Assembly (NCBI GenBank): GCA_007135125.1
Contig: SLJK01000057.1
Location: 3,612 to 67,611, forward strand
DNA length: 64,000 nt
Reading direction: 5' to 3'
Source: Syntrophomonadaceae bacterium
GTDB taxonomy: Bacteria; Bacillota; Dethiobacteria; DTU022; UBA8154
Notes under the pieces: generated by a model
What the model was told of the DNA's origin: nothing
Databases searched by the model: none
Seen by the model: the letters and a program-made list of their open reading frames with translations, nothing else
Position numbers and translations under genes: made by a program
Shown here: positions 9,575 to 64,000 of the stretch, in pieces
Layout: each line of letters begins with the position of its first letter
How positions within the stretch are numbered: the stretch's first letter is position 1

Positions 9575-10190
9575 GTGAGAACTGTTAAATTGTGCTATAA
9601 TTCTGTTGGATGTAGGTGGTGCAGTATCCTAGTTGGCAAACACTTCTGAAAACGGGCCTAAAAATCCGTTTAAGGGCACATCAATGAAGTCCCTGGTGCT
9701 GGCCGCTGAAGCCCAGTTGGGGGCTGGTGCTGGGGGTTAAGAAGGATGGGGCGATCTACAAAGGCATGTAGGCGTTGACCCTACCTTCGCGGAGACCTAA
9801 GATGGTGGTTCTTATCGAAAGGTAAGTTCTACTGCTTGGGGAAGAACCTGTGTGAGGCAGACGCTTTGCACAGTGTAGCCTGCCTTGAGTGGTGACGGGG
9901 GATAAGTGCTGTCTTTCAGGACTGGGAAACCGTCATTGAAAAGAGGCTAGGAAGTGTTCAATGCCAGCGAGGAAAACTCCTAGGCTGTTCCCATGGGGAG
10001 GCTCTATGGGGATTAAAGTGTGGTCTTAGTGGTAATCCAGCCCTGCTGTTGGCAACATGGCAGAGATGCTCTTAAAAGGTAACTGCCTTTCCGGTGACGG
10101 TGGGTGGGCATCTGGGAAATCCTGCTGGACCTTAAGCCGCAAAGTTTACTCATAGGGCTGCCACCTGCGTCTTTTTGTTATATCGTTGAG
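9575..10190 (+). ncRNA. ole: OLE (ornate large extremophilic) RNA, about 600 nt
   Basis: A ~630-nt gap with no ORF between ispA and a 4-TM membrane protein gene (oapA) that sits directly upstream of dxs. This is the characteristic ispA-ole-oapA-dxs-tlyA-nadK-recN arrangement described for OLE RNA loci. The sequence is GC-balanced and structured-looking. I could not run a covariance search. Confidence 0.7.
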
Positions 10191-10198
10191 GTGTTTAT

Positions 10199-10777
10199 TT
10201 GGCCAGAAGAACTGCAAAACAGAAAAAACGTGCATTGCGCTGGGCAATTATGGTTACTTTTTGGACTTTTCTGGTAGCCTTCGTTTTTGCACTGACCATG
10301 CGCTTCATTCTTCATGGTATACAGTCGATCATTATTTCTTTCCTGCTTCTTTTATTTATTATTTTTATCGGCGTACTCTTCGATACTATAGGCACGGCAG
10401 TAACAGCTGCCAACGAAACGCCGTTCCATTCCAAAGCCTCCAAAAAAGTTTATGGTGCGCAAAAAGGGATTTACCTGGTCCGGTATGCTGACCAGGTAGC
10501 TAACTTTTGCAATGATATGATTGGGGATATTAGCGGCGTGGTTAGCGGCGTGGTTGGTGCAGTAATTATTTTCAACCTGGTCCTGGCCCGGCCGGAACTG
10601 AGTGAAATATATTTAAGTATTATTTTAACCGCCGTAGTGGCTGCACTAACCGTGGGGGGAAAAGCGCTAGGAAAATATTTAGCAATCAGCAGGCCCACAG
10701 AAGTAGTGTTATTGTTTGCCCAGGTGCTTACCACTATAGAAAAAGTATCTTTAAGAAAGAAACAAAACAGGTATTAA
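10199..10777 (+). CDS. oapA: OLE-associated protein A (small polytopic membrane protein)
   Basis: 192 aa with about 4 predicted TM segments. TTG start after GAGGTG. Position immediately 3' of the OLE candidate and 5' of dxs. Confidence 0.65.
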   Translation: MARRTAKQKKRALRWAIMVTFWTFLVAFVFALTMRFILHGIQSIIISFLLLLFIIFIGVLFDTIGTAVTAANETPFHSKASKKVYGAQKGIYLVRYADQVANFCNDMIGDISGVVSGVVGAVIIFNLVLARPELSEIYLSIILTAVVAALTVGGKALGKYLAISRPTEVVLLFAQVLTTIEKVSLRKKQNRY

Positions 10778-29486: not shown

Positions 29487-30833
29487 TTGGTGGGTTTCGG
29501 AGAGTCACTTATGAATAGAGGATTTAAAGTAAAGAGCTTGGCGGAAGGTACACCTGCCCATAAAGCAGGTATAAAACAGGGAGACCGTATTCTGAAAATT
29601 AACGGGACTTCTTTTTTTGATGTTTTGGATTATAGTTACCTTTCTGCAGATGAAAAAGTAGAGTTGCAGTTTTACCGCAATGGCAATTTGCTACAAGTAA
29701 AAGTGGTAAAAGATATGGATGAAGACCTGGGAATAGAATTTTTCTCCCCGACCGTTAGTCCTCTTTATTTCTGTCGAAACAAATGCATCTTTTGCTTTAT
29801 AGACCAACAACCCGGTGGTATGCGTCTATCTCTGTATGAAAAAGATGATGATTATCGCCTTTCCTTTATTGATGGTAATTATGTTACCCTTACCAATGTA
29901 CAGGAAGCTGACCTTAAAAGAATAATCAGCATGAATATTTCACCCCTTTATATATCCATTCATGCCACGGATGGGGCAGTACGTAAAAAAATGATGGGGA
30001 ATGTGGCTGCCGGCAGAATAATGGAGCAACTGGCACAGCTGTCCGAAGCAGGTATTGAAATGCACGGCCAAGTTGTTGTATGTCCTGGCATAAATGATGG
30101 AGATGTTTTACAAAAAACAGTTTGGGAACTGGCTTCTTTGTATCCTCAACTAAAAACAATTGCCTTAGTTCCCGTAGGACTCACCAGGTACAGGGGAAAT
30201 TTAAAACCTCTAAAAAAAGTAACACAAAACAAAGCTCAGCAAATTGTTAAAGAGTATTCATCCCTGCAAAATGTATTTCAACAAGAAATAGGCTCGCCTT
30301 TTGTATACCTGGCAGATGACTTTTATCTTCTCTCCGGGGCATCCCTGCCTTCTCATGAACATTATGGGGATTATCACCAACTGGAAAATGGAGTGGGGCT
30401 GTGCCGATTGTTTTTAAACGAACTGCTTGACTGGAAGAGAAAAACTTCATTTGAGATAAAAAACAAAACACACATATCTATCGCTACAGGTCAGGCAGCA
30501 GCCCCTTTTCTTCAACTCTTTATAAGAGAACTTGAGAAGATCAAGAATTTGGAAACCGATCTACATATAATTGAAAACAGGTTCTGGGGTGGAAACGTAG
30601 ACGTAGCAGGTTTGTTAACTGGAAGAGACCTTTTTCATTCTTTATACCAAAAGAACCTGGGGGATTACCTTTTTATTTCTTCGGCCATGCTTAAGGCCGG
30701 GACAGATCTCTTTTTGGATGGAGTTAACTTGAAAGCTCTTTCGGTCCGCCTCCAAACACCTGTTGTCCCGGTCAATGCCCTAGGTGAAATAAGAAAATTT
30801 ATAGTTGGCCACACCAAAAATAAAGCGAGGTGA
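29487..30833 (+). CDS. PDZ domain plus DUF512 radical-SAM-like protein
   Basis: N-terminal PDZ (GIKQGDRILKING) followed by CRNKCIFC (Cx3Cx2C). Conserved position upstream of der in Clostridia. Confidence 0.65.
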   Translation: MVGFGESLMNRGFKVKSLAEGTPAHKAGIKQGDRILKINGTSFFDVLDYSYLSADEKVELQFYRNGNLLQVKVVKDMDEDLGIEFFSPTVSPLYFCRNKCIFCFIDQQPGGMRLSLYEKDDDYRLSFIDGNYVTLTNVQEADLKRIISMNISPLYISIHATDGAVRKKMMGNVAAGRIMEQLAQLSEAGIEMHGQVVVCPGINDGDVLQKTVWELASLYPQLKTIALVPVGLTRYRGNLKPLKKVTQNKAQQIVKEYSSLQNVFQQEIGSPFVYLADDFYLLSGASLPSHEHYGDYHQLENGVGLCRLFLNELLDWKRKTSFEIKNKTHISIATGQAAAPFLQLFIRELEKIKNLETDLHIIENRFWGGNVDVAGLLTGRDLFHSLYQKNLGDYLFISSAMLKAGTDLFLDGVNLKALSVRLQTPVVPVNALGEIRKFIVGHTKNKAR

Positions 30834-43990: not shown

Positions 43991-44989
43991 ATGTCAAAAA
44001 GGATGCCTGGCTCTCAAACAGAACTTGCCGTGGAAACTCGTGCGCTGGTCAAAGTTTTTGGGCAAAACCGAGCAGTGGACGGGGTGGATCTGGAGATGCC
44101 CTGCGGCACCGTCTACGGTCTGTTGGGCCCTAACGGCGCCGGCAAAACCACCACCATACGCATGCTGTCCACCCTGCTGCAGCCAGATGGCGGCACCGCC
44201 CGGGTACTGGGTTATGACGTGGTACGCCAGGCAGACGCAGTGCGCAGCCGCATGAGCCTTACCGGGCAGTTTGCCTCGGCAGACGAAGATCTCACCGGTC
44301 AGGAAAACCTGGTGATGTTGGCCAGGTTGTGGGGTTTTTCCCGCATGCAGGCACGTTCACGGGCGGAAGAACTGCTGCACGCTTTTCATCTGGAGGATGC
44401 AGCCCGGCGCCAGGTAAAAAACTACTCCGGGGGGATGCGGCGGCGCCTTGATATTGCCGCCAGCATTATCATTACCCCGGAACTGCTTTTCCTGGATGAG
44501 CCCACTGCCGGCCTGGATCCTCGCAGTCGCAACCAGGTATGGAGTATTGTTCGTGCCCTGTTGGCAGAGGGTACTACGGTGTTGCTCACCACCCAATACC
44601 TGGAGGAGGCCGACCAACTCTGCGAAAGGATTGCCGTCATAGACCGGGGCAGGGTCATCGCCGAAGGTACCGGCGGTGAGCTCAAGGAGTCGGTAGGAAA
44701 GGGGACTCTGCTGGTGCGGCTGCGCCGGCCCGAACATCGGCCACGGGCTCAAGAGATTCTGCAGAGAGTTTTGAGCGATGTGACGCTGCACCAGTTGCTC
44801 GACCCTGCAGCGCTCTCGGCCCGCCTTAATCACACGGAGCGGGTGGCGGAAGCCCTGGCGGCATTGCAGCAGGCCGGTATCGCTGTAACTGAGTTTTCCC
44901 TGGGAAGGCCCAGCCTGGACGAGGTTTTTCTGGCGCTGACAGGACAGCCGGCAGAGGAGAAGACTACCGAAGGGGAGATTAACCATTGA
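43991..44989 (+). CDS. ABC transporter ATP-binding protein, DrrA/ABC-2 exporter type; >60% GC
   Basis: Walker [10 protein letters not shown], signature YSGGMRRRL, Walker B LLFLDEPT. Confidence 0.85.
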
Positions 44990-45834
44990 TAGAAACCCGG
45001 CAGACCACAGTACCGGTGCCGCAGGATATTCAGGAAGATCTGCAGTCCGCCCTTTTTTTGAGCACCCGCCCTCCTCGGCCCAGTCCCCTGGCTTCTTCTA
45101 TGGTTTTTGGATGGAGGGCGCTGCTGAAGATAAAATACGTCCCCGAGCAGATGTTTGATGTGACCATCTTCCCGGTCATGTTCACCCTTATGTTTACCTA
45201 TTTATTCGGCGGAGCCCTCGCCGGATCCACCAGTGATTACCTGCAGTTTCTTCTGCCGGGGATCCTGGTGCAGACGGTGGTGTTCCTCACTGTTTATACC
45301 GGCTTCGGGTTGAACACCGACATCACCAAGGGGATCTTCGACCGGGTACGTACCCTGCCTATCTGGCGTCCATCCGCTCTGGTAGGCGCTTTGCTGGGTG
45401 ATGCCATGCGTTACACTATCGCATCAATTATAGTGATAGGACTGGGGCTGTTGCTGGGATACCGCCCTCCTGGTGGCCCCGCCGGAGTACTGCTGGCTGT
45501 ATTGCTAATGCTGACCTTTGCCTTCAGCATGTCCTGGATCTGGACCATGCTGGGGCTAATCCTGCGAACACCCAACTCGGTCATGGGAGTAAGCATGACC
45601 ATCCTTTTCCCCCTGACCTTTGCCAGCAACATCTTTGTAGATCCGCAAACCATGCCCCCGTGGCTGGCATCTTTTGTTGACGTTAACCCTATCACCATCC
45701 TGGTGACTGCCATGCGGGGCCTTATTAACGGCAACGCCGCCGGCAGCGAAATTCTCCTGGCCCTGCTGGTGTCAGGCGGATTCCTCGCCATTTTCGCTCC
45801 TTTAACCATGCACTTCTACCACCATAAGAAATAG
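44986..45834 (+). CDS. ABC-2 family transporter permease (DrrB-like); high GC
   Basis: 6-TM ABC-2 permease. 4-nt overlap with the ATPase gene. Confidence 0.75.
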
Positions 45835-47453: not shown

Positions 47454-47530
47454 CGGGGCGTGGCGCAGTTTGGTAGCGCGCTTGACTGGGGGTCAAGAGG
47501 TCGCAGGTTCAAATCCTGTCGCTCCGACCA
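47454..47530 (+). tRNA. tRNA-Pro (anticodon GGG), CCA encoded
   Basis: Manual fold. Acceptor CGGGGCG/CGCUCCG. D-arm GCGC..GCGC. Anticodon stem CUUGA/UCAAG with loop CUGGGGG. T-arm GCAGG-UUCAAAU-CCUGU. 3' ACCA. Confidence 0.85.
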
Positions 47531-49804: not shown

Positions 49805-50045
49805 ATCTAATTATTTGCTGCTGGTTATGTATTTTTTCCTTTCTTTATCTTACACTGAAAACAGTGGAATATCAATTGCGAACTTCATTGCATGCGAGAT
49901 AAACCGCAAACAACATTATCCACGGTCCCCAGGGTTGACCCATGCAGGGGATTTTGGAAATAGTTGTTTTCACTCCTGCAAAATTTTATGCTAAAATAAA
50001 AAATAAGGGCCTGATTGAAATAAAAAGCCGGCCGAAAGGGGAAAA

Positions 50046-55930: not shown

Positions 55931-56327
55931 TCAAACCCTCCTTATTGATCTTGATAATTACTCAGCCATTATAAATCAATTCACTCTGCGTACTCCCGGA
56001 TTCCGTGTTATACTCCGAGCAAACATCGCTTTCCAAATAAACTAATAAAAGGTTAAACCAAACAATACCAATATTTATATAATAAAAACCCCCATTCTGC
56101 CATGAGTTCATTCTCATTTTTAGATGGGGGGTGATAAAAATAACCAATCAGGTTTCTCCAAAACCGGCGCTGTTTTGTTCTAAATTAACCCAGATTAATA
56201 AGTATTTTAATCCTGAGATTCCTGCAGGGAAATGCTATAATCGTGGGGAAGTAAAATCATGGTTGAGTATTCTCCCATATTTTAACGGGGATCTTCTTCT
56301 GGAGAGGTATTTTATGGGGGGAAGAAA

Positions 56328-57137
56328 TTGCCTGCACCTGTTTTTTTCCGCGACGATTACTATAAAGGAATAGGGATATCAAAAGGTTTGGCCCGTGGAG
56401 TACAAGTGATGACGGATGGTGTAGATTTAACCCAAGAAGGGATGGGCCTGGGTACAATCGCCATTAGATCTAAAGGTTACACCTATTTTTCGCAGAATAG
56501 CAAAGTAGCCTGGATAGATTCGCAGAATATGCTTTTGGATTATGTAATTGATACAGTGCACTTATCAAGTTACAAGAATGTAGCCTATCCATTGATTACC
56601 AGGATTAGAGAGTTAGGGGTCGTTTTGTATCGTTTGTTGCCTGCTTTCCAAAAAGTAATGTTACTGACAGGCACCAAAGTTCGTCGATTCTTGGGGGTCA
56701 AAACTATATTTGTGCCTGTTCCTCCACTGGCGCGTGCACAGTTTCATTTCAAGTTTGGCACTAATAGAGTTGAGGTATGCTTAAAATTTTATGCTATCGA
56801 TAAGGACATTGATGAGATTTTTATTATGAACGAATTGGGTGCTGACTTTTTCGACTGTGGATGGAAGGCAGGTTGTCTTACCAAACCCCCGTCAGGCTGG
56901 GAAGTCTTAGAAGACACAAATAGTTTACCTTCCCTTTATAGCTCTAATGAGCATTTACGTTACTCACTTTCTGATATAATAGTAAATCAGGAATTGCCTT
57001 TTAAAGTATGTTGGGGACGAGAACAAATTGAGGATTTGTGTTGGGCTGGGTTTACCATTCAAATCAATCCAGTCGTTTCCTCAATTTCCGGTATAATTTG
57101 TCGATATACACTCATTTTTGAAGATGCTGATAATTAA
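56328..57137 (+). CDS. Hypothetical protein, translationally coupled to the B12-radical SAM gene
   Basis: 269-aa ORF with TTG start. An alternative frame (56131..56373) overlaps its 5' end. Confidence 0.4.
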   Translation: MPAPVFFRDDYYKGIGISKGLARGVQVMTDGVDLTQEGMGLGTIAIRSKGYTYFSQNSKVAWIDSQNMLLDYVIDTVHLSSYKNVAYPLITRIRELGVVLYRLLPAFQKVMLLTGTKVRRFLGVKTIFVPVPPLARAQFHFKFGTNRVEVCLKFYAIDKDIDEIFIMNELGADFFDCGWKAGCLTKPPSGWEVLEDTNSLPSLYSSNEHLRYSLSDIIVNQELPFKVCWGREQIEDLCWAGFTIQINPVVSSISGIICRYTLIFEDADN

Positions 57138-57147
57138 GGGGTCGCAT

Positions 57148-58446
57148 ATGGAGAAAAGAGTTGTACTGGTTTATCCATATTTTCGGTATAAAGACCCGGT
57201 TTCCAAGCTATTTCCACCGTTAGGCATCGCCTATCTTGCCAGTCAGTTAAAAGAATATTCAATAGACGTCTACGTTATCGACTGTACTTTTGAGACCATA
57301 GATACTGCTGTAGAAAAGATTGTCTCCTTAAAACCTGCCATCATTGGGATGTCTATCATGGTATCATTGAGCCGGAGTTCCTTTGATATCGCTGCTCAAC
57401 TCCAGGCTTCTCTACCAGATACTATATTGGTAGCAGGGGGGGCATTACCCTCCGTTTATCCAGACCATTATTTTCGTCATTTTGACCTGGTATTTCAGGG
57501 GGAAAGCGACTTAATATTCTCCAGATTTTGTCGTGATTATTTGAATAGCAGTGATAAAATTGACTTTCTTAATCGCATTGATATACATGATTACCCGGGT
57601 ATTTGTATTAATACATCTAAAGGAATTATTTCAAGTCCAGCCGTGCACCACGACTCTAATATTCTTGACACTCTCCCCAGACCGGACCGTAGTTTTTTTC
57701 CACATGATCTATACCAGCTGCATTGGCATAACTCTCACCAAACCCCTCAAGCCAGTATAATGGTAACCCGCGGCTGTCCCCTTACCTGTGACTTTTGCTC
57801 TAAACCAGTATGGGGAAGTGTTTATCGTAAATTAGATTTAGATAATGTGTTTCTAGAAATCGATGATATTATTGATTACGGCTATGAAAGGCTTTGGATC
57901 GCAGATGATTCCTTTACTCTTGATCTATATTACCTGCGGGAATTCTGTCAACAAAAGCTATCACGAGGAATCAACATCGAATGGACATGTCTGTCCCGCA
58001 CCCGCGGCATAGATAAGGAAACGGTAGATTTAATGAAAGAGGCGGGTTGTGAAAAAGTATATCTGGGGCTTGAATCAGGCAGTGATGAAACATTACGCTT
58101 GATGGGCAAAAAAAGCACGGTCCAAGATGGGATCGATGCTGTTAAGGTATTAACTCAAGCAGGAATTAGTGCTGCCGGCTTTTTCATTGTAGGATATCCC
58201 GGAGAAACTGTAGGTTCAATAGAAAAGACCTTTTCCTTGGCATTAAGCCTTCCTTTAGAAGAACTTTCCATTAACGTGCCCCTACCATTACCCGGTTCGG
58301 CTCTTTATTCGAAGGTTTGTCATCTTAATTCCGATGAAGACTGGGAAATAGCAAGCGCTGCAAGCTTTGTATATAAATCAGAGCACAACCAGGATTGGCT
58401 GAAGAAGCGAATTAAAGAAACCCTGGCGAGTTTCAAGGAACGTTAA
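57148..58446 (+). CDS. B12-binding-domain radical SAM protein (class B)
   Basis: N-terminal cobalamin-binding-like Rossmann domain. CPLTCDFC (Cx3Cx2C). ATG 57148 after AAGGGG. Confidence 0.8.
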   Translation: MEKRVVLVYPYFRYKDPVSKLFPPLGIAYLASQLKEYSIDVYVIDCTFETIDTAVEKIVSLKPAIIGMSIMVSLSRSSFDIAAQLQASLPDTILVAGGALPSVYPDHYFRHFDLVFQGESDLIFSRFCRDYLNSSDKIDFLNRIDIHDYPGICINTSKGIISSPAVHHDSNILDTLPRPDRSFFPHDLYQLHWHNSHQTPQASIMVTRGCPLTCDFCSKPVWGSVYRKLDLDNVFLEIDDIIDYGYERLWIADDSFTLDLYYLREFCQQKLSRGINIEWTCLSRTRGIDKETVDLMKEAGCEKVYLGLESGSDETLRLMGKKSTVQDGIDAVKVLTQAGISAAGFFIVGYPGETVGSIEKTFSLALSLPLEELSINVPLPLPGSALYSKVCHLNSDEDWEIASAASFVYKSEHNQDWLKKRIKETLASFKER

Positions 58447-58682
58447 TAAACCATCTTGGATATAAACCTTTGTACAATATAGTTGTTTTCACTCCTGCAA
58501 AATTTTATGCTAAAATAAAAAATAAGGGCCTAATTGAAATAAAAACCGGCCGAAAGGGGAAGCGGTCTTTGCACAGGAAAAAATAGAAGTAGGATGGGCA
58601 GCCGATGTATTATTTTGCCTTTTTGAAAAAGAGCACTGAGTTCGTCTATCCATATAAGGATAAGTAATAGGGGGGCAAAGCA

Positions 58683-59381
58683 ATGGTTCACAGGGTCAAC
58701 AGGGAAACTTACATAGTTATCGGCTGCGGTCATTTTGGTCATAGGGCTGTGCAAGCCCTTAAAAGTCTATCTCCATCGCCCCGGGTCATAGCGGTTGATC
58801 GTGATAGGAATCAACTCCGAGCGGTAGAAAGGCGAGCAGATCAGGTTCATCACGGGGACGGTATACATTACCTGGCAGGGTTGCCTGAGTCGCAGGCGGT
58901 TTCATATTGGATAGTGCCTGCTTTACCCCTGCATTTAGCTTTGGAATGGATGCTGTATACACTGAACAGGGCAGGCGCCACCTACACAGCAGAAAGGTTG
59001 CCGTTGCCAAAGGCATTTAACCCGAGAAAGGTATTGTGGCAGCACTGTACCCCCACTGGAACATTTTATTGCAGCCTTAGTGATTTTACCTGCCCGGACG
59101 ATTGCCCTGAACCAGAGGAATACTGCTATGTAACACAGCAGCCTCGTCCAACTCCTCTATACCTGATCCTGAAGGAAATAACATGCGCTGGGTACCATTC
59201 CCTGGTCGTACGCAGCCGAATTATCGTGCCCGGAGTAGGCGGCTACCCCTTTGCTGATTTGCTGACGTTGCGCTCCTTTTTATTAAGCAATGAGGGTAAT
59301 TATTTGTTGAGTACAGCATGCACTTGCCATGGTATTGCTGGCGCCATTTCTATTTTTGCAAAAGAAAAGCAGGAGAAGTAG
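58683..59381 (+). CDS. Hypothetical protein: N-terminal NAD(P)-binding-like GxGxxG (IVIGCGHFG) plus Cys-rich central region
   Basis: 232-aa ORF, RBS GGGGGG, higher GC. Motifs CPDDCPEPEEYC and CTCHG. Confidence 0.45.
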   Translation: MVHRVNRETYIVIGCGHFGHRAVQALKSLSPSPRVIAVDRDRNQLRAVERRADQVHHGDGIHYLAGLPESQAVSYWIVPALPLHLALEWMLYTLNRAGATYTAERLPLPKAFNPRKVLWQHCTPTGTFYCSLSDFTCPDDCPEPEEYCYVTQQPRPTPLYLILKEITCAGYHSLVVRSRIIVPGVGGYPFADLLTLRSFLLSNEGNYLLSTACTCHGIAGAISIFAKEKQEK

Positions 59382-60010
59382 ATGCTGGAATGCTTATGCC
59401 ATTTTGTTATAAGCTGGCAATCAGCTCTGCGGCAACCAGCCCAACGTTGACAATGCACCCTATAATGCTAAAATATTCTAAATGCCGCTACTATTTCTAT
59501 GCTTTTAGTAGTACTAAGCTTAACGAAAATAGTTTTTGTGAAAACAAAAGGAAAAATTACCAATGTCAGAAGCTCCATCCCCAGAAGTTAACTCTCCAGC
59601 ATGAGGAAAGAGCTTTTTACCTCACGTACGGGTAAAGGAAAAAGTGTTGTGTGGCAAAGAGAAGACCCCTGCGACAGACAAAAACTACGATCCGTGCCCC
59701 GGAATCCCAAAAATCCAGGATTAATGAATTTCTGGAGAAAATAGGGGATGCAAGCGTAAGGTGCGGTATTGATGAAAATGACGTGTGCCACCTCATTGAA
59801 AGAATTACGGGAAGAAAAGAATAACCGGATTAAAGAAAACTCTAAGGAGCCGAAGAGCCACTCGGCTCCTTAGAGTTCTAGCCCATGGTAGAAGAAACTG
59901 GAGAAATTGAAGACACATAGACCGGAGCGACTGTAAGGGGAACAAAAATTATCAGTGCTATTAGGGACGGTCTGAACTGAGGACTTTATTAAAGGACATT
60001 TTAATTCAAT

Positions 60011-60046
60011 GGCGCTCCTATGATATAACAGGAGCGCCATTTTTTA
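60011..60046 (+). terminator. Rho-independent terminator
   Basis: GGCGCTCCT / AGGAGCGCC stem followed by ATTTTTT. Confidence 0.8.
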
Positions 60047-60326
60047 TGCAGTCGAGAATTGGTTTGTGCACATCTTCTTGCATATCATACATGATTGGCT
60101 GAATAGGAAGCAGCAGCAAAAGCAGGAAAATATTTTATAACGGGCAGGAAGTATAAGGCAACAAATGGAACTATAAAATATTATTTAGATCAATTGCATA
60201 TATTGCAATAATTTATGGGGAGATGGAGTAAATGTGGGGGTTGTAGGGTGTAAGAAGAGATACCAGCCACCTTTCGCCTGCAATCGTTTCCTTTGAAGCT
60301 GTTTTGACAATTAAGTAACGAGACAG

Positions 60327-61382
60327 TTGGGAGGCATCCGGGAAAACTATATGGGCAAAAAAAGTACGGCGAAATTAAAGGGATTGTCTTTTCTGAGAAA
60401 AGCCCTTTTTAACAGTAAGGTTAAAAAGAGGCCCATCTTTCTCTCTCATCTGATAACAACCCGCTGTAACTGCAGTTGCCCCATGTGCCTGTGGCGAGAT
60501 AATAACCCGGACTTGGAGATGAGCACGGTGGAAGTTTTAAACTTTTACCGTGACAGCGCCAGAGAAGGGTTTGTCTCCACGGGGATATGGGGAGGAGAGC
60601 CACTTCTGCGCAACGACCTGGAGGAAATATTGCGGGGCGCACACAGGGCGGGCCTTACAACTGTACTACTTACCAATGGTTATTACTTAGAAGAGCGCCT
60701 GGAAGAGCTCTCGCCCTGGCTGGATAGCGTGGTCCTTTCCCTGGACTACCCCGGTGAGGAGCACGACCGCATGAGAGGATGCCCCGGCCTTTATCAGAAG
60801 GTAACAAGATCTGTAGAACTGCTGCGCTCTCGCCACCCCCATATCAAAATACTTGTTAACTGCCTGCTGCACCGCGGGAACGAGAGAAACATTCCAGCCC
60901 TTGCCGACCTGGTGAAAGAGATGGAGGTTTCCTTTTACGTTTGTCCGGTAAAGGCGGAGGAACTGCCCGGGGAGGGGGGCCGCTCTGTTGAAGGCTGGGA
61001 GGCAGAGGGAGAGGACGAAAAGGAGGCCGTGCGCCAGCTGCTTCGTTTAAAAAAAGAGGGTTATCCGCTGAACAATTCTTATACCTACCTGCGGGAATTT
61101 TTGGGGCAGAAAAAGCCTTTCACTTGCCATCTTCCCCTTGTAGCACTGCTGGTGCGCCCGGACGGTGAGGTGGTTAATTGCTTGGATCCTGCAAATCCGC
61201 CGGGAAATGTTAGGAAGCAGTCTGTAGGACAGATCTTGCGAGGTGCCGCTTATAGGAAAATGCGCTTGGGGGCAAGGGAATGCCAACACTGCAATAACCC
61301 CAATGTGGTGGAGACTTCTTACCTTTGGGAGTTGAGAAGGGAACCTTTAATAAACGCCCTGAGCGTGCTTTCCAGGAGATAA
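60327..61382 (+). CDS. Radical SAM protein with C-terminal auxiliary Cys cluster (twitch/SPASM-like)
   Basis: CNCSCPMC (Cx3Cx2C with an extra Cys), GGEPLL, C-terminal C...C...CxxC. Confidence 0.75.
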   Translation: MGGIRENYMGKKSTAKLKGLSFLRKALFNSKVKKRPIFLSHLITTRCNCSCPMCLWRDNNPDLEMSTVEVLNFYRDSAREGFVSTGIWGGEPLLRNDLEEILRGAHRAGLTTVLLTNGYYLEERLEELSPWLDSVVLSLDYPGEEHDRMRGCPGLYQKVTRSVELLRSRHPHIKILVNCLLHRGNERNIPALADLVKEMEVSFYVCPVKAEELPGEGGRSVEGWEAEGEDEKEAVRQLLRLKKEGYPLNNSYTYLREFLGQKKPFTCHLPLVALLVRPDGEVVNCLDPANPPGNVRKQSVGQILRGAAYRKMRLGARECQHCNNPNVVETSYLWELRREPLINALSVLSRR

Positions 61383-61512
61383 ATACAATTTCCCTGGCAA
61401 GCCGGTACCTGGGGAAAAAAGGTGTTCTGATGATATTTTCCCGTAGCGTGGGAGGCAGGGAAGATGGCGGTCAGTTTTTGTTCACAAAAAAGTATAGGGG
61501 GATAAACAGACA

Positions 61513-62535
61513 GTGCTTTCGCGCCGGAAAAAAGTTGCCCGCCTTTTTCGCAAAATAGTTCTGGGACGCCTTGCAGGCAGCGGCCCCTTTTTCCTCTCAC
61601 ACCTGGTAACGGCAAGGTGTAATTGCCGTTGTCCCGGTTGCTTGTGGAGGGACAATAACTCAGCAGAGATGGGGACGCAAGAGGTAGAGGATCTGTACAG
61701 GGCAGCCGCTAAAAGGGGCTTTGTGGCCAATGTCCTGTGGGGAGGGGAGCCCCTCTTGCGAAAAGACCTTCCCCGTTTATGCAGCACTTCGCAGCTGGAA
61801 AGGATGCTAACTGTGGTTATCACCAACGGCTATTACCTGGCGGAGCGCTGCGAAGAACTGGTGCCCCATGTAGACGGCCTGATCATATCCCTGGACTACG
61901 CCCGTCCCGAGAATCATGACGCTTACCGCCGTTGCCCGGGGTTGTTCGCCAGGGCTGTAGAGGGGATCCGGCGAGTGCGTTCCCGTTATCCAAAAGTGAG
62001 GGTATTCCTGAATTGCCTGCTGCATCGCGGCAACGAAGAAGAAGTGGAAGAAGTAGCTTGCCTGGGCCGGGAACTGGGTGTCTCTGTCTTTTTTTCGCCG
62101 GCCATGGAAGGGCTCTCTCTCGAAAACGGTTTTCATAATAAGGAGGCCCTGCCTGTACCGGAAAGCCTCCGAAAAGCAGCAGCCCGCCTGCTGGAACTGA
62201 AAAAGAGCGGTCTGCCTGTAAACAACTCTCGCCGTTACCTGCAAGAGTACTTACTCGAGGGTCAGGGCTTCAGCTGCCGAGTGCCGCTGGTTTTCATGAC
62301 CGTCATGGCCGACGGCACCGCACTCAACTGCTTTACACCGGAGCGGCCGCTAGGAAACATCAGGGAGGAGGGTTTCGAAGGGATCCTGGACAAACAGAGC
62401 CGGAAAAAACTCCTCCATCTTGGACAAAGGTGTCAAAAATGTATCGTCCCGGACGTGGTGGACACATCCTTTATTTGGCAGCTGAGCCCGGAGCCTCTTT
62501 ATAACGCGTTGCGGGTTTTCCTTAAGGGAGAATAG
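61513..62535 (+). CDS. Radical SAM protein, tandem paralog of the preceding gene
   Basis: CNCRCPGC, GGEPLL, C-terminal C...C...CxxC. Roughly 50% identical to 60327..61382. GTG start. Confidence 0.75.
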   Translation: MLSRRKKVARLFRKIVLGRLAGSGPFFLSHLVTARCNCRCPGCLWRDNNSAEMGTQEVEDLYRAAAKRGFVANVLWGGEPLLRKDLPRLCSTSQLERMLTVVITNGYYLAERCEELVPHVDGLIISLDYARPENHDAYRRCPGLFARAVEGIRRVRSRYPKVRVFLNCLLHRGNEEEVEEVACLGRELGVSVFFSPAMEGLSLENGFHNKEALPVPESLRKAAARLLELKKSGLPVNNSRRYLQEYLLEGQGFSCRVPLVFMTVMADGTALNCFTPERPLGNIREEGFEGILDKQSRKKLLHLGQRCQKCIVPDVVDTSFIWQLSPEPLYNALRVFLKGE

Positions 62536-62854
62536 ATGAATGGAAACGAAAGACTATATTAAATACATGGGATTTTGACAAAAATATAAAGAAATAGCGG
62601 TTTGAAACTTTTTTTATGGTTCAAAATTATGCGAATATTACATAATAGGCAGGAAATATAAGACAAATATGGAACTATAAACTATAAAAAAATTATTAGC
62701 TCAATAGAGTATATTACAGCAATTTGTGAGGGGAAGGTGATCAGTATAGTAGATCTTATCCTCGCTTTAATTCCCAAAAATGAATGAGCTTCCTCATCGT
62801 CTTATCAGGACAAGGCTCGGAAGAAAAGACTTCAAAATATTAGGAGGTATTATT

Positions 62855-64000
62855 ATGGAAGCTTTAACCGGCGGTGCACTGCTGGCCAAACTCCTCAAAA
62901 ATGCAGGGGTAAAATATGTATTTGGGGTCCCCGGGGGGCAGCTTTTCCCTTTTATGGATGCTGTATCACGGGATGAAGAGATGACTTTTATCACCACAAG
63001 GCACGAGCAAAACGGCGCCCACATGGCAGATGCCGTAGCCAGGTTGACGGGTAAACCCGCAGCCTGTTTCGGGACCACCGGTCCCGGAGCCACAAACATG
63101 TTTCCAGGAGTGGCGGCAGCCTCTGCCGACAATATTCCCATCTTCGTTATCACCCCCAACAACCAGTCTTTTTGTGTATATCCCAGCATCGGTTCACTGC
63201 AGGACGGAGACCACTTCCAGATGTACAAGACAGTCACCAAGTGGAATGCCGTGGTAAACAGCAGGGAAAGGATATCGGAACTGGTAGCCACGGCCTTGAG
63301 ACATGCCACAAATGGCAGGCCCGGTCCTGTCCACCTGGATTTTCCTACCGATGTGCTCTTTGAGACGGCTGAAGAGGATGTCTCTCCCAGGTTTTACCGT
63401 TCCCAGAAGCCCAGAAGCGAGCCCCGGCAGGTGGAACTTGTGGCTAAAATGCTTAAGGAAGCAAAAAGGCCCCTCCTTTTGGCAGGGGGTGGGGTGGTAA
63501 GGTCGCAAGCATGGGAAGAATTCCGCAAAGTTGCCACAATGGGAATTCCCGCTACAACAACTCCCATGGGCGACGGATGCGTAGACTTAAAAAGCAATTA
63601 TTACTTTGGAGGGGCCGGCTGGCTGGGCGGTGAACCGGTCATCAAGGCTCTTTCCCGGGCCGATGTGCTCGTGGCAGTGGGATGTCGTTTTTCTACATGG
63701 ATGGGGCACGGCAGGCCACCCATCTTCGGTAATGCAGGAGAACAAAAAATTATCCAGGTGGACATCAAAGGGGAGGTAATTGGACAAAATGCCCCTGTAG
63801 AGCTGGGCATCGTCTCCGACGCCAAACTATTTCTTGAAGAGCTGGAAGAGGCCCTGCGGAATATTTCCCTGGACAACAAGGAGGAGTGGGATAGCTGGGG
63901 AAATGAACTTGCCGGCAGCTACAAGAGTTACATGGGTGAATTGATGCAGCTGGCGGACCAGTCCTCAGATCCCATGAACGAAGCAACAGCTCTAAGGGAG
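62855..64000 (+). CDS. Thiamine-diphosphate-dependent enzyme of the acetolactate synthase family (3' partial at window edge)
   Basis: ORF open to the window end, RBS AGGAGG. N-terminal TPP_enzyme_N (GVKYVFGVPGGQ..) and central domains. Not in the ORF track because it has no stop. Confidence 0.7.
   Translation, partial: MEALTGGALLAKLLKNAGVKYVFGVPGGQLFPFMDAVSRDEEMTFITTRHEQNGAHMADAVARLTGKPAACFGTTGPGATNMFPGVAAASADNIPIFVITPNNQSFCVYPSIGSLQDGDHFQMYKTVTKWNAVVNSRERISELVATALRHATNGRPGPVHLDFPTDVLFETAEEDVSPRFYRSQKPRSEPRQVELVAKMLKEAKRPLLLAGGGVVRSQAWEEFRKVATMGIPATTTPMGDGCVDLKSNYYFGGAGWLGGEPVIKALSRADVLVAVGCRFSTWMGHGRPPIFGNAGEQKIIQVDIKGEVIGQNAPVELGIVSDAKLFLEELEEALRNISLDNKEEWDSWGNELAGSYKSYMGELMQLADQSSDPMNEATALRE

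Follow-up and report, generated by a model that had tools for sequence, protein, structure and literature searches.

When three radical S-adenosylmethionine (rSAM) enzymes, a cysteine-rich NAD-binding-like protein and a thiamine diphosphate (ThDP) enzyme are encoded side by side on one strand, do their genes form a single biosynthetic pathway? This question is raised by the last 7.7 kb of a 64,000-nt stretch of contig SLJK01000057.1 from a Syntrophomonadaceae bacterium (the whole stretch is hereafter called the window), for which a first-pass annotation had proposed one uncharacterised cofactor or natural-product cluster of six genes. All six open reading frames (ORFs) that it had predicted, including the three rSAM genes, were found in place on the plus strand within 8 kb. 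Our analysis indicated that the stretch is probably a same-strand patchwork of four separately inherited units rather than one biosynthetic cluster, and that its firmly supported functional unit, as predicted from gene linkage, is a two-gene cassette encoding a 269-aa protein and an rSAM enzyme with a cobalamin (B12)-binding domain. The four units are this cassette (unit 1, 56.3-58.4 kb), the gene of an AF_1314_C-family protein (unit 2, 58.7-59.4 kb), a tandem of two related rSAM genes (unit 3, 60.35-62.5 kb) and the ThDP enzyme gene (unit 4, 62.86 kb onwards), with a small ORF of doubtful status in between:

56328-57137, plus strand: gene of the 269-aa protein, no Pfam and no NCBIfam match
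57148-58446, plus strand: B12-rSAM gene, 432 aa, ATG at 57148 (alternative TTG at 57118), PF02310 and PF04055
58683-59381, plus strand: AF_1314_C-family protein gene, 232 aa, TrkA_N Rossmann domain and precomputed PF27252 match
59651-59824, plus strand: ORF of doubtful status, 57 aa, no family
60351-61382, plus strand: rSAM-1 (subtype 1), 343 aa, alternative start at 60327, Pfam Radical_SAM and SPASM
61513-62535, plus strand: rSAM-2 (subtype 2), 340 aa, Pfam Radical_SAM and SPASM
62855-64000, plus strand, cut by the window end: ThDP enzyme gene, 570 aa in full, TPP_enzyme_N and TPP_enzyme_M

Neighbourhoods, borders and intergenic modules

We compared the neighbourhoods of each unit in other genomes and metagenomes. 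Homologues of the 269-aa protein were located in 41 foreign loci, none of which had the twin rSAMs, the AF_1314_C-family protein or the ThDP enzyme nearby, and the B12-rSAM, the 269-aa protein and the AF_1314_C-family protein were absent from all 84 foreign loci with a member of the twin-rSAM family (73 of subtype 2 and 11 of subtype 1). Across these and five further foreign loci, about 130 altogether, no two of the four units were found together.

DNA homology to relatives also ended at the unit borders. For the AF_1314_C gene it covered 58683-59354 only, while the cassette recurs, at 86% DNA identity, at 3091-5222 of contig PWSW01000047.1 (locus L140) in the metagenome-assembled genome (MAG) GCA_003563065.1; this duplicate matched window positions 56293-58424 only and was flanked by a rhodanese gene and a phage-integrase fragment. 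This MAG also includes a contig that matches the region's right half identically, and the L140 copy is paralogous or mobile, unless the bin mixes strains. GC content at third codon positions (GC3) was 36-37% in unit 1, 49% in the AF_1314_C gene, 58-62% in the rSAM pair and 57% in the ThDP gene. Thus, the accessory, GC-mosaic context described by the first-pass annotation was borne out by composition and GC3, and the region forms an accessory stretch of uneven composition in the genome of an uncultured, most likely anaerobic member of the Bacillota, probably from soda-lake sediment.

The intergenic sequence contained several hairpins and promoter-like modules:

58479-58561, plus strand: promoter-like repeat module of 84 nt, 97.6% identical to 49960-50043
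59839-59876: perfect 15-bp hairpin, -30.3 kcal/mol, z -5.4
60008-60048, plus strand: intrinsic terminator with a 12-bp GC-rich stem, -23 kcal/mol, z -4.7
60129-60226, plus strand: module copy A, upstream of the rSAM pair
62634-62737, plus strand: module copy B, upstream of the ThDP gene

Two strong hairpins, at about 59.84 kb and at 60.01-60.05 kb, part unit 2 from unit 3 within the 970-nt gap that separates the AF_1314_C gene from rSAM-1. The hairpin at 59839-59876 is followed by TTTTCTTTAAT on the minus strand and looks like a minus-strand terminator, and the stem at 60008-60048 is followed by AUUUUUUAU, a U-run on the plus strand, and is predicted to insulate the rSAM pair from upstream transcription. 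Judged from these sequence features, the units appear to differ in history, borders and composition, and would be transcribed separately at least between units 2 and 3. Rfam was searched at the gathering score over all 64 kb and with the threshold relaxed to E 1 over 55.9-64 kb. No riboswitch or leader turned up in the intergenic modules, and the relaxed search gave a single match, a chance miRNA similarity to the hairpin.

The duplicated promoter modules noted in the first-pass annotation were recovered, with 97.6% identity over 84 nt for one pair and 71% over 105 nt for the other. The module at 58479-58561, which lies downstream of the B12-rSAM gene and 120 nt 5' of the AF_1314_C gene, carries a promoter-like TTCACT-17-TAAAAT with an upstream TG (extended -10) at 58488-58516; its twin at 49960-50043 lies upstream of an unrelated haloacid dehalogenase (HAD) hydrolase gene. 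The chance expectation for such a pair is about 0, and it resembles either a promoter that was recently duplicated or a dispersed repeat of intergenic DNA. Copies A and B are 71-75% identical over about 105 nt around an exact 19-mer core (chance expectation 0.08); copy A has a promoter-like TTTAGA-17-AATAAT with an upstream TG, and a TTGCA-N5-TGCAA inverted repeat is present in copy A but not in copy B.

Given this shared module and their similar GC3, units 3 and 4 may have been acquired jointly or be under joint regulation, limited to this lineage. A stronger version, in which the tandem and the ThDP enzyme form a co-regulated functional unit and the rSAMs would act on an intermediate, derived from a 2-oxo acid, that the ThDP enzyme supplies or consumes, seems unlikely to us. 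The roughly 105-nt module with its 19-mer core, the GC3 match and the absence of a detectable terminator in between are all consistent with it, but the only other tandem of these rSAM genes (locus L059, described below) has no ThDP gene behind it but a Clp-type ATPase gene in the opposite orientation, and a ThDP gene lay near an rSAM-family member in just 2 of the 84 loci. In these two the enzyme is of the acetolactate synthase (ALS) family and 31-33% identical, and in one of them (L009) the gene belongs to an ilvD/ilvB/ilvN/ilvC operon. Moreover, the functionally unrelated HAD hydrolase and AF_1314_C genes likewise share a promoter module, so shared modules may simply be commonplace in this genome, with no bearing on function.

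Several observations weigh against a patchwork. All six genes lie on one strand inside 8 kb; no terminator could be detected between the B12-rSAM and AF_1314_C genes or between rSAM-2 and the ThDP gene, so read-through transcription is possible at these junctions; and the module found upstream of both the tandem and the ThDP gene points to a degree of shared control. In addition, a pathway assembled recently in one lineage would show the same lack of conservation elsewhere, and close relatives were sampled only as short metagenome contigs. The chemistry proposed below for unit 1 has as its sole grounds superfamily membership and a fold matched at 3-10% identity. The proximity of the genes on one strand, their accessory context, the uncharacterised status of all the enzymes and the lack of a detected terminator at two of three junctions could also be read as signs that all six genes make up one lineage-specific pathway for a cofactor or natural product. 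We consider that proposal very improbable, since no two units occurred together in about 130 foreign loci, homology blocks stop at the unit borders, two strong hairpins interrupt the series at 59.84 and 60.01-60.05 kb, the genes fall into three GC3 classes (36-37%, 49% and 57-62%), each unit has a promoter-like module of its own, and neither a PepM motif nor a precursor peptide nor tailoring genes were found. The phosphonate-type or RiPP-type (ribosomally synthesised and post-translationally modified peptide) chemistry offered as examples by the first-pass annotation found no backing either: the phosphoenolpyruvate mutase motif EDKxxxxxNS is absent from every frame of the 64-kb window, and a conserved precursor-peptide gene was lacking, the small ORFs 5' of the rSAM genes differing between loci.

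The two-gene cassette and its predicted chemistry

To evaluate the linkage of the cassette genes, we used four metagenome loci and 36 loci from named genomes, and counted a locus only where 300 nt or more followed the 269-aa homologue. A B12-rSAM orthologue was located directly downstream on the same strand in 37 of 37 such loci, at 31-85% identity and with an alignment-to-alignment gap of 3-288 nt. In the window, the B12-rSAM ATG (57148) stands 10 nt past the stop codon of its partner, and the TTG start at 57118 would overlap the 269-aa gene. Clustering of the neighbouring genes in the 269-aa loci revealed no other conserved neighbour family: candidates for a third conserved gene proved to be lineage synteny or a multi-PAS artefact, and an apparent fusion of the 269-aa and B12-rSAM genes was an artefact of merged ORF calls.

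The cassette was found in bacteria of the Syntrophomonadaceae, Peptostreptococcales, Acidobacteriota, Deltaproteobacteria and Thermoleophilia, which account for most carriers, and in the archaea Methanoregula, Methanosphaerula subterraneus (complete genome), Methanospirillum, Methanocalculus, Methanomassiliicoccus and Borrarchaeum, the carriers including an Asgard MAG. This spread, over syntrophic or anaerobic Bacillota, Acidobacteriota, Thermoleophilia, Methanomicrobiales, Methanomassiliicoccales and an Asgard archaeon, may point to exchange among them. In the Thermoleophilia MAGs (L045-L054), distant 269-aa homologues (22-26% identity) lie amid two or three B12-rSAM paralogues, possibly as an expanded cassette.

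The product of 57148-58446 has the N-terminal B12-binding domain (PF02310, 58.2 bits against a cut-off of 32.1) and the rSAM core with CX3CX2C (PF04055, 91.7 bits) of a class B rSAM enzyme, as the first-pass annotation had recognised. Its orthologues are strongly conserved end to end, and the CPLTCDFC motif is kept in 23 of them. All curated NCBIfam cut-offs were missed, with scores (bits obtained/bits required) of 131/600 for PhpK, 118/575 for Sden_1168, 113/481 for BchE, 99/578 for HpnJ, 95/360 for MgmA (TIGR04014), 91/450 for BzaD, 77/650 for HpnR and 68/500 for AprD4. The closest solved structures, over the core, were AprD4 (6fd2, E 1e-17), which NCBIfam labels a diol-dehydratase and not a methyltransferase, and MgmA (9ccb, E 2.8e-17). 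The enzyme shares with MgmA, AprD4 (6FD2), PhpK and BchE an N-terminal B12 domain, a CX3CX2C core and a length of about 430 aa, but it scores 3 to 5 times under every curated class B cut-off and, unlike any of these four, always occurs with a dedicated partner of about 270 aa. These results indicated that the B12-rSAM would represent a new, uncharacterised subfamily.

The 269-aa partner has no sequence-level relative among Pfam or PDB entries. A profile search of 1.84 billion representatives showed that its family is small, with 420 clusters (50% identity) at E up to 1e-3, all of them stand-alone proteins of about 270 aa. Its AlphaFold2 (AF2) model adopts a galactose-mutarotase-like supersandwich fold, as in aldose 1-epimerases and in accessory domains of glycoside hydrolase (GH38, GH2) and polysaccharide lyase (PL8) enzymes, with 3-13% sequence identity to the structural matches. 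The catalytic site of aldose 1-epimerases contains His; the 269-aa family is without any invariant His, so that site cannot be conserved in the 269-aa protein.

The cassette is best read as encoding a partner-assisted cobalamin rSAM enzyme, most likely a C-methyltransferase whose substrate we infer to be a small molecule, sugar-like or other. The rSAM would cleave SAM at the [4Fe-4S] cluster of the CX3CX2C motif, and the cobalamin held by the N-terminal domain would most likely be used to methylate or otherwise functionalise an unactivated carbon. The 269-aa partner would bind, deliver or further process the substrate, and its supersandwich fold hints that the ligand may be sugar-like. Alternatively, the partner itself could be the substrate of a post-translational modification, by analogy with methyl-coenzyme M reductase (MCR), in which MgmA (PDB 9CCB) C-methylates a glutamine (PMC11796369). 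The window-type B12-rSAM differs from MgmA in that it occurs in bacteria without MCR.

An architectural precedent for a B12-rSAM tightly coupled to the gene of a beta-rich non-rSAM partner is the Ted/Hgs system of archaeal lipids, in which the gene of a B12-rSAM tetraether desaturase (Ted) overlaps an AttH-like hydratase gene (Hgs), and for which homologues were taken as at least 500 aa (Ted) and at least 300 aa (Hgs) long (bioRxiv 10.1101/2025.10.20.683597). Ted homologues were reported in Methanomassiliicoccus luminyensis and Asgard archaea (bioRxiv 10.1101/2025.10.20.683597), and the window cassette is likewise found in Methanomassiliicoccus and Asgard archaea. Compared by description and not by sequence, the window rSAM differs from Ted in its 432 aa, and the 269-aa partner differs from Hgs in its mutarotase-like fold and in having no AttH or CrtC Pfam match. 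Most cassette carriers are bacteria, which to our knowledge lack glycerol dialkyl glycerol tetraethers (GDGTs). On this comparison, the cassette is not of the same family as Ted/Hgs.

Only tentatively do we put forward a combined proposal. In it, the cassette would be a new two-component cobalamin rSAM system, with the supersandwich protein presenting or processing a substrate, sugar-like or lipid-like, for a novel rSAM chemistry; rSAM-1 and rSAM-2 would together form one heteromeric enzyme, from a new family marked by four Cys in the SAM-cluster motif.

The rSAM tandem and the other units

The tandem forms a second, weaker unit. rSAM-1 and rSAM-2 are 43% identical and represent two subtypes of one uncharacterised family, which upholds their description as paralogues in the first-pass annotation. 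Their cluster motif, RCNC[SR]CP[MG]CLWRDN, had been called unusual; it is present, but amounts to a canonical CX3CX2C plus an additional Cys, and family members share every one of the four Cys without exception. A C-terminal auxiliary site had likewise been predicted, as a Cys triad; the site exists and consists of four invariant Cys (CX12GX4C...CX2C), as in a truncated SPASM or twitch-like domain. Both proteins passed the Pfam SPASM model (34.6 and 26.2 bits against a gathering score of 21.5), whereas neither has the full seven-Cys SPASM motif with two auxiliary clusters (CX9-15GX4C...CX2CX5CX3C...C).

Scores of the pair against NCBIfam cut-offs (bits obtained/bits required) were 99-109/306 for TIGR03961, about 47/225 for HpnH, 66/650 for AhbC, 55-56/500 for AhbD, 59/515 for NirJ, 62/381 for PqqE and 65/284 for MoaA. 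The best solved match was SkfB, and many subtype-2 homologues carry precomputed DUF3463 matches. The pair thus shares an rSAM core and a C-terminal Cys-rich auxiliary-cluster domain with SkfB (6EFN), BlsE (7VOB), PqqE, PTO1314 (TIGR03961) and HpnH (DUF3463), but differs from SPASM enzymes in having four auxiliary Cys instead of seven and an invariant extra Cys in the SAM-cluster motif, and from SkfB-type and HpnH-type systems in that the family usually occurs as a singleton, without precursor-peptide or hopanoid genes. Likeness to AhbC, AhbD and NirJ is confined to the general rSAM/SPASM core, and the window rSAMs are not members of these families. In fact, no window protein examined reached a curated NCBIfam cut-off, so that none of them is AhbC, AhbD, NirJ, PqqE, PhpK, BchE or IlvB. 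Family typing, which had been set beforehand as a test, therefore assigned the three rSAMs to no named NCBIfam family, in agreement with the earlier view that the combination matches no housekeeping pathway that could be named.

As a conserved pair, by contrast, the twin rSAMs did not hold up. The nearest relatives of rSAM-1 are singletons from soda-lake metagenomes at 55-57% identity, and rSAM-2 is 57-59% identical to soda-lake singletons, which are thus closer to it than its neighbour rSAM-1, and 47-51% identical to a large clade with three members named Dehalococcoidia or Chloroflexota (L009 and two others). Where a contig left 1.1 kb or more for a partner, upstream of subtype 2 (51 loci) or downstream of subtype 1 (10 loci), none was present. 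Among the 84 foreign loci, the only other tandem was L059, in which the 3' end of a subtype-1 gene lies 20 nt upstream of a subtype-2 gene, on a contig of metagenome Ga0207421, which also yielded the contig L057, identical to the window. With L059 set against singletons elsewhere, the tandem is real but rare; and as one copy stands alone in most genomes, the enzymes of this family need none of the other genes in the window.

The large subtype-2 clade has a conserved synteny of its own, with transporter genes; an ATP-binding cassette (ABC) ATPase family was present in 45 and an ABC-2 permease family in 34 of the 84 loci. Inspection of L009 and roughly a dozen further loci placed the ATPase start about 40-50 nt past the subtype-2 rSAM, an adjacency that could reflect a functional link or lineage synteny only.

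Could the pair instead be RiPP maturases, with a precursor peptide encoded in the gap at 59.4-60.3 kb, for instance by the 57-aa ORF? rSAM/SPASM enzymes are typical peptide maturases, SkfB is the best solved match, and the 57-aa ORF is preceded by a strong, near-consensus promoter-like TTGACA-16-TAAAAT with an upstream TG at 59447-59474. Nevertheless, a terminator separates this ORF from the rSAM genes, the auxiliary Cys number four only, every RiPP NCBIfam model was far from its cut-off for the pair, and no homologue of the ORF was found in any database library or locus searched, including those beside the 84 related rSAM genes. We therefore regard peptide maturation as highly improbable, the least probable of the readings weighed here. 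The segment 59447-59876 may be an orphan small gene, a small RNA (sRNA) or a remnant.

The NAD-binding-like, Cys-rich protein of the first-pass annotation proved to have an N-terminal GxGxxG Rossmann domain (a weak TrkA_N match, 30 bits) and a C-terminal Cys-rich domain, with precomputed PF27252 (AF_1314_C) matches in the window protein and all 29 homologues. C137, C141, C148, C215 and H216 are invariant in the family, and the C-terminal domain is probably a metal or Fe-S site. Homologues at 57-59% identity lie in a conserved SfsA/AF_1314_C/glutaredoxin setting, and a 75%-identical homologue is flanked by URO-D and GcvH genes on one side and by abhydrolase, MerR-thioredoxin and TRAP transporter genes on the other. 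A literature search on AF_1314, PTO1314 and TIGR03961 found nothing relevant. The protein is probably a stand-alone redox protein.

The ThDP enzyme, which starts at 62855 and runs off the window end with TPP_enzyme_N and TPP_enzyme_M domains as first described, was recovered at full length (570 aa, TPP_enzyme_N/M/C) on identical contigs (L001, L002). The complete protein stayed below all NCBIfam cut-offs (best TIGR00118 at 376/538 and PRK08322 at 368/509 bits). It shares its domain architecture with the superfamily of ALS and 2-hydroxyacyl-CoA lyase (HACL), its best PDB matches being BbmA, catabolic ALS and HACL/oxalyl-CoA decarboxylase at E of about 1e-72. Unlike acetolactate synthase loci, it has no ilvN and no ilv neighbours; for an assignment as IlvB, an adjacent ilvN or ilvC gene was sought on the contigs read and was not found. 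By sequence, the enzyme appears to be an orphan of the ALS/HACL superfamily to which no substrate can be assigned. On the 3' side of its gene, the product starts like a membrane protein, and its one family match, to YedE/FdhT, is very weak at E 0.0027 (17 bits against a cut-off of 350). This membrane-like gene indicates that nothing rSAM-related follows beyond 64000, contrary to the suggestion that the cluster may continue past the window.

Genomic setting and significance of the cassette

Outside the six-gene stretch, the window contains a full-length OLE (ornate large extremophilic) RNA at 9600-10180 on the plus strand (466 bits, E 1e-133), from which the host is most likely an anaerobic, extremophilic member of the Bacillota; the ORF directly 3' of it (10199-10777) may encode an OLE-associated protein. 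The sequence also recurs in MAGs and metagenome contigs, some with record names starting in 'SL_' and ending in 'SED', read here as soda-lake sediment. The conserved part of the window, with its leading-strand genes, has a fourth ORF with CX3CX2C (29487-30833, plus strand), which encodes 448 aa and has the motif CRNKCIFC. Leading-strand orientation and uniform GC give way to a patchy, mixed-strand accessory region at about the position of a tRNA gene (47454-47527, plus strand), a possible island insertion site; no integrase was found among the ORFs scanned. A DrrA-type ABC ATPase and an ABC-2 permease are encoded at 43991-45834 with 55-60% GC and 66% GC3 in a genome of about 42.5% GC, and are probably a recent foreign acquisition. 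We rejected this pair as the counterpart of the ABC genes that flank subtype-2 rSAMs of the large, partly Dehalococcoidia-named clade: its ATPase, at about 47%, was a generic match, and its permease gave no match. A known defence system was also rejected, as PADLOC returned only a generic rSAM-core likeness to viperins and PDC-M51A.

These results keep a plausible-looking natural-product cluster of three rSAMs plus a ThDP enzyme from being pursued as a unit, and direct attention to the cassette. Specialists are unlikely to be surprised by it, given that uncharacterised rSAM subfamilies are very numerous. Yet B12-rSAM enzymes have repeatedly proved to perform unprecedented chemistry, so that a subfamily with an obligate partner is worth study. 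Rare, strictly linked and shared across domains by anaerobes including methanogens, the cassette pairs two undescribed families and thus offers a well-defined target for biochemistry.

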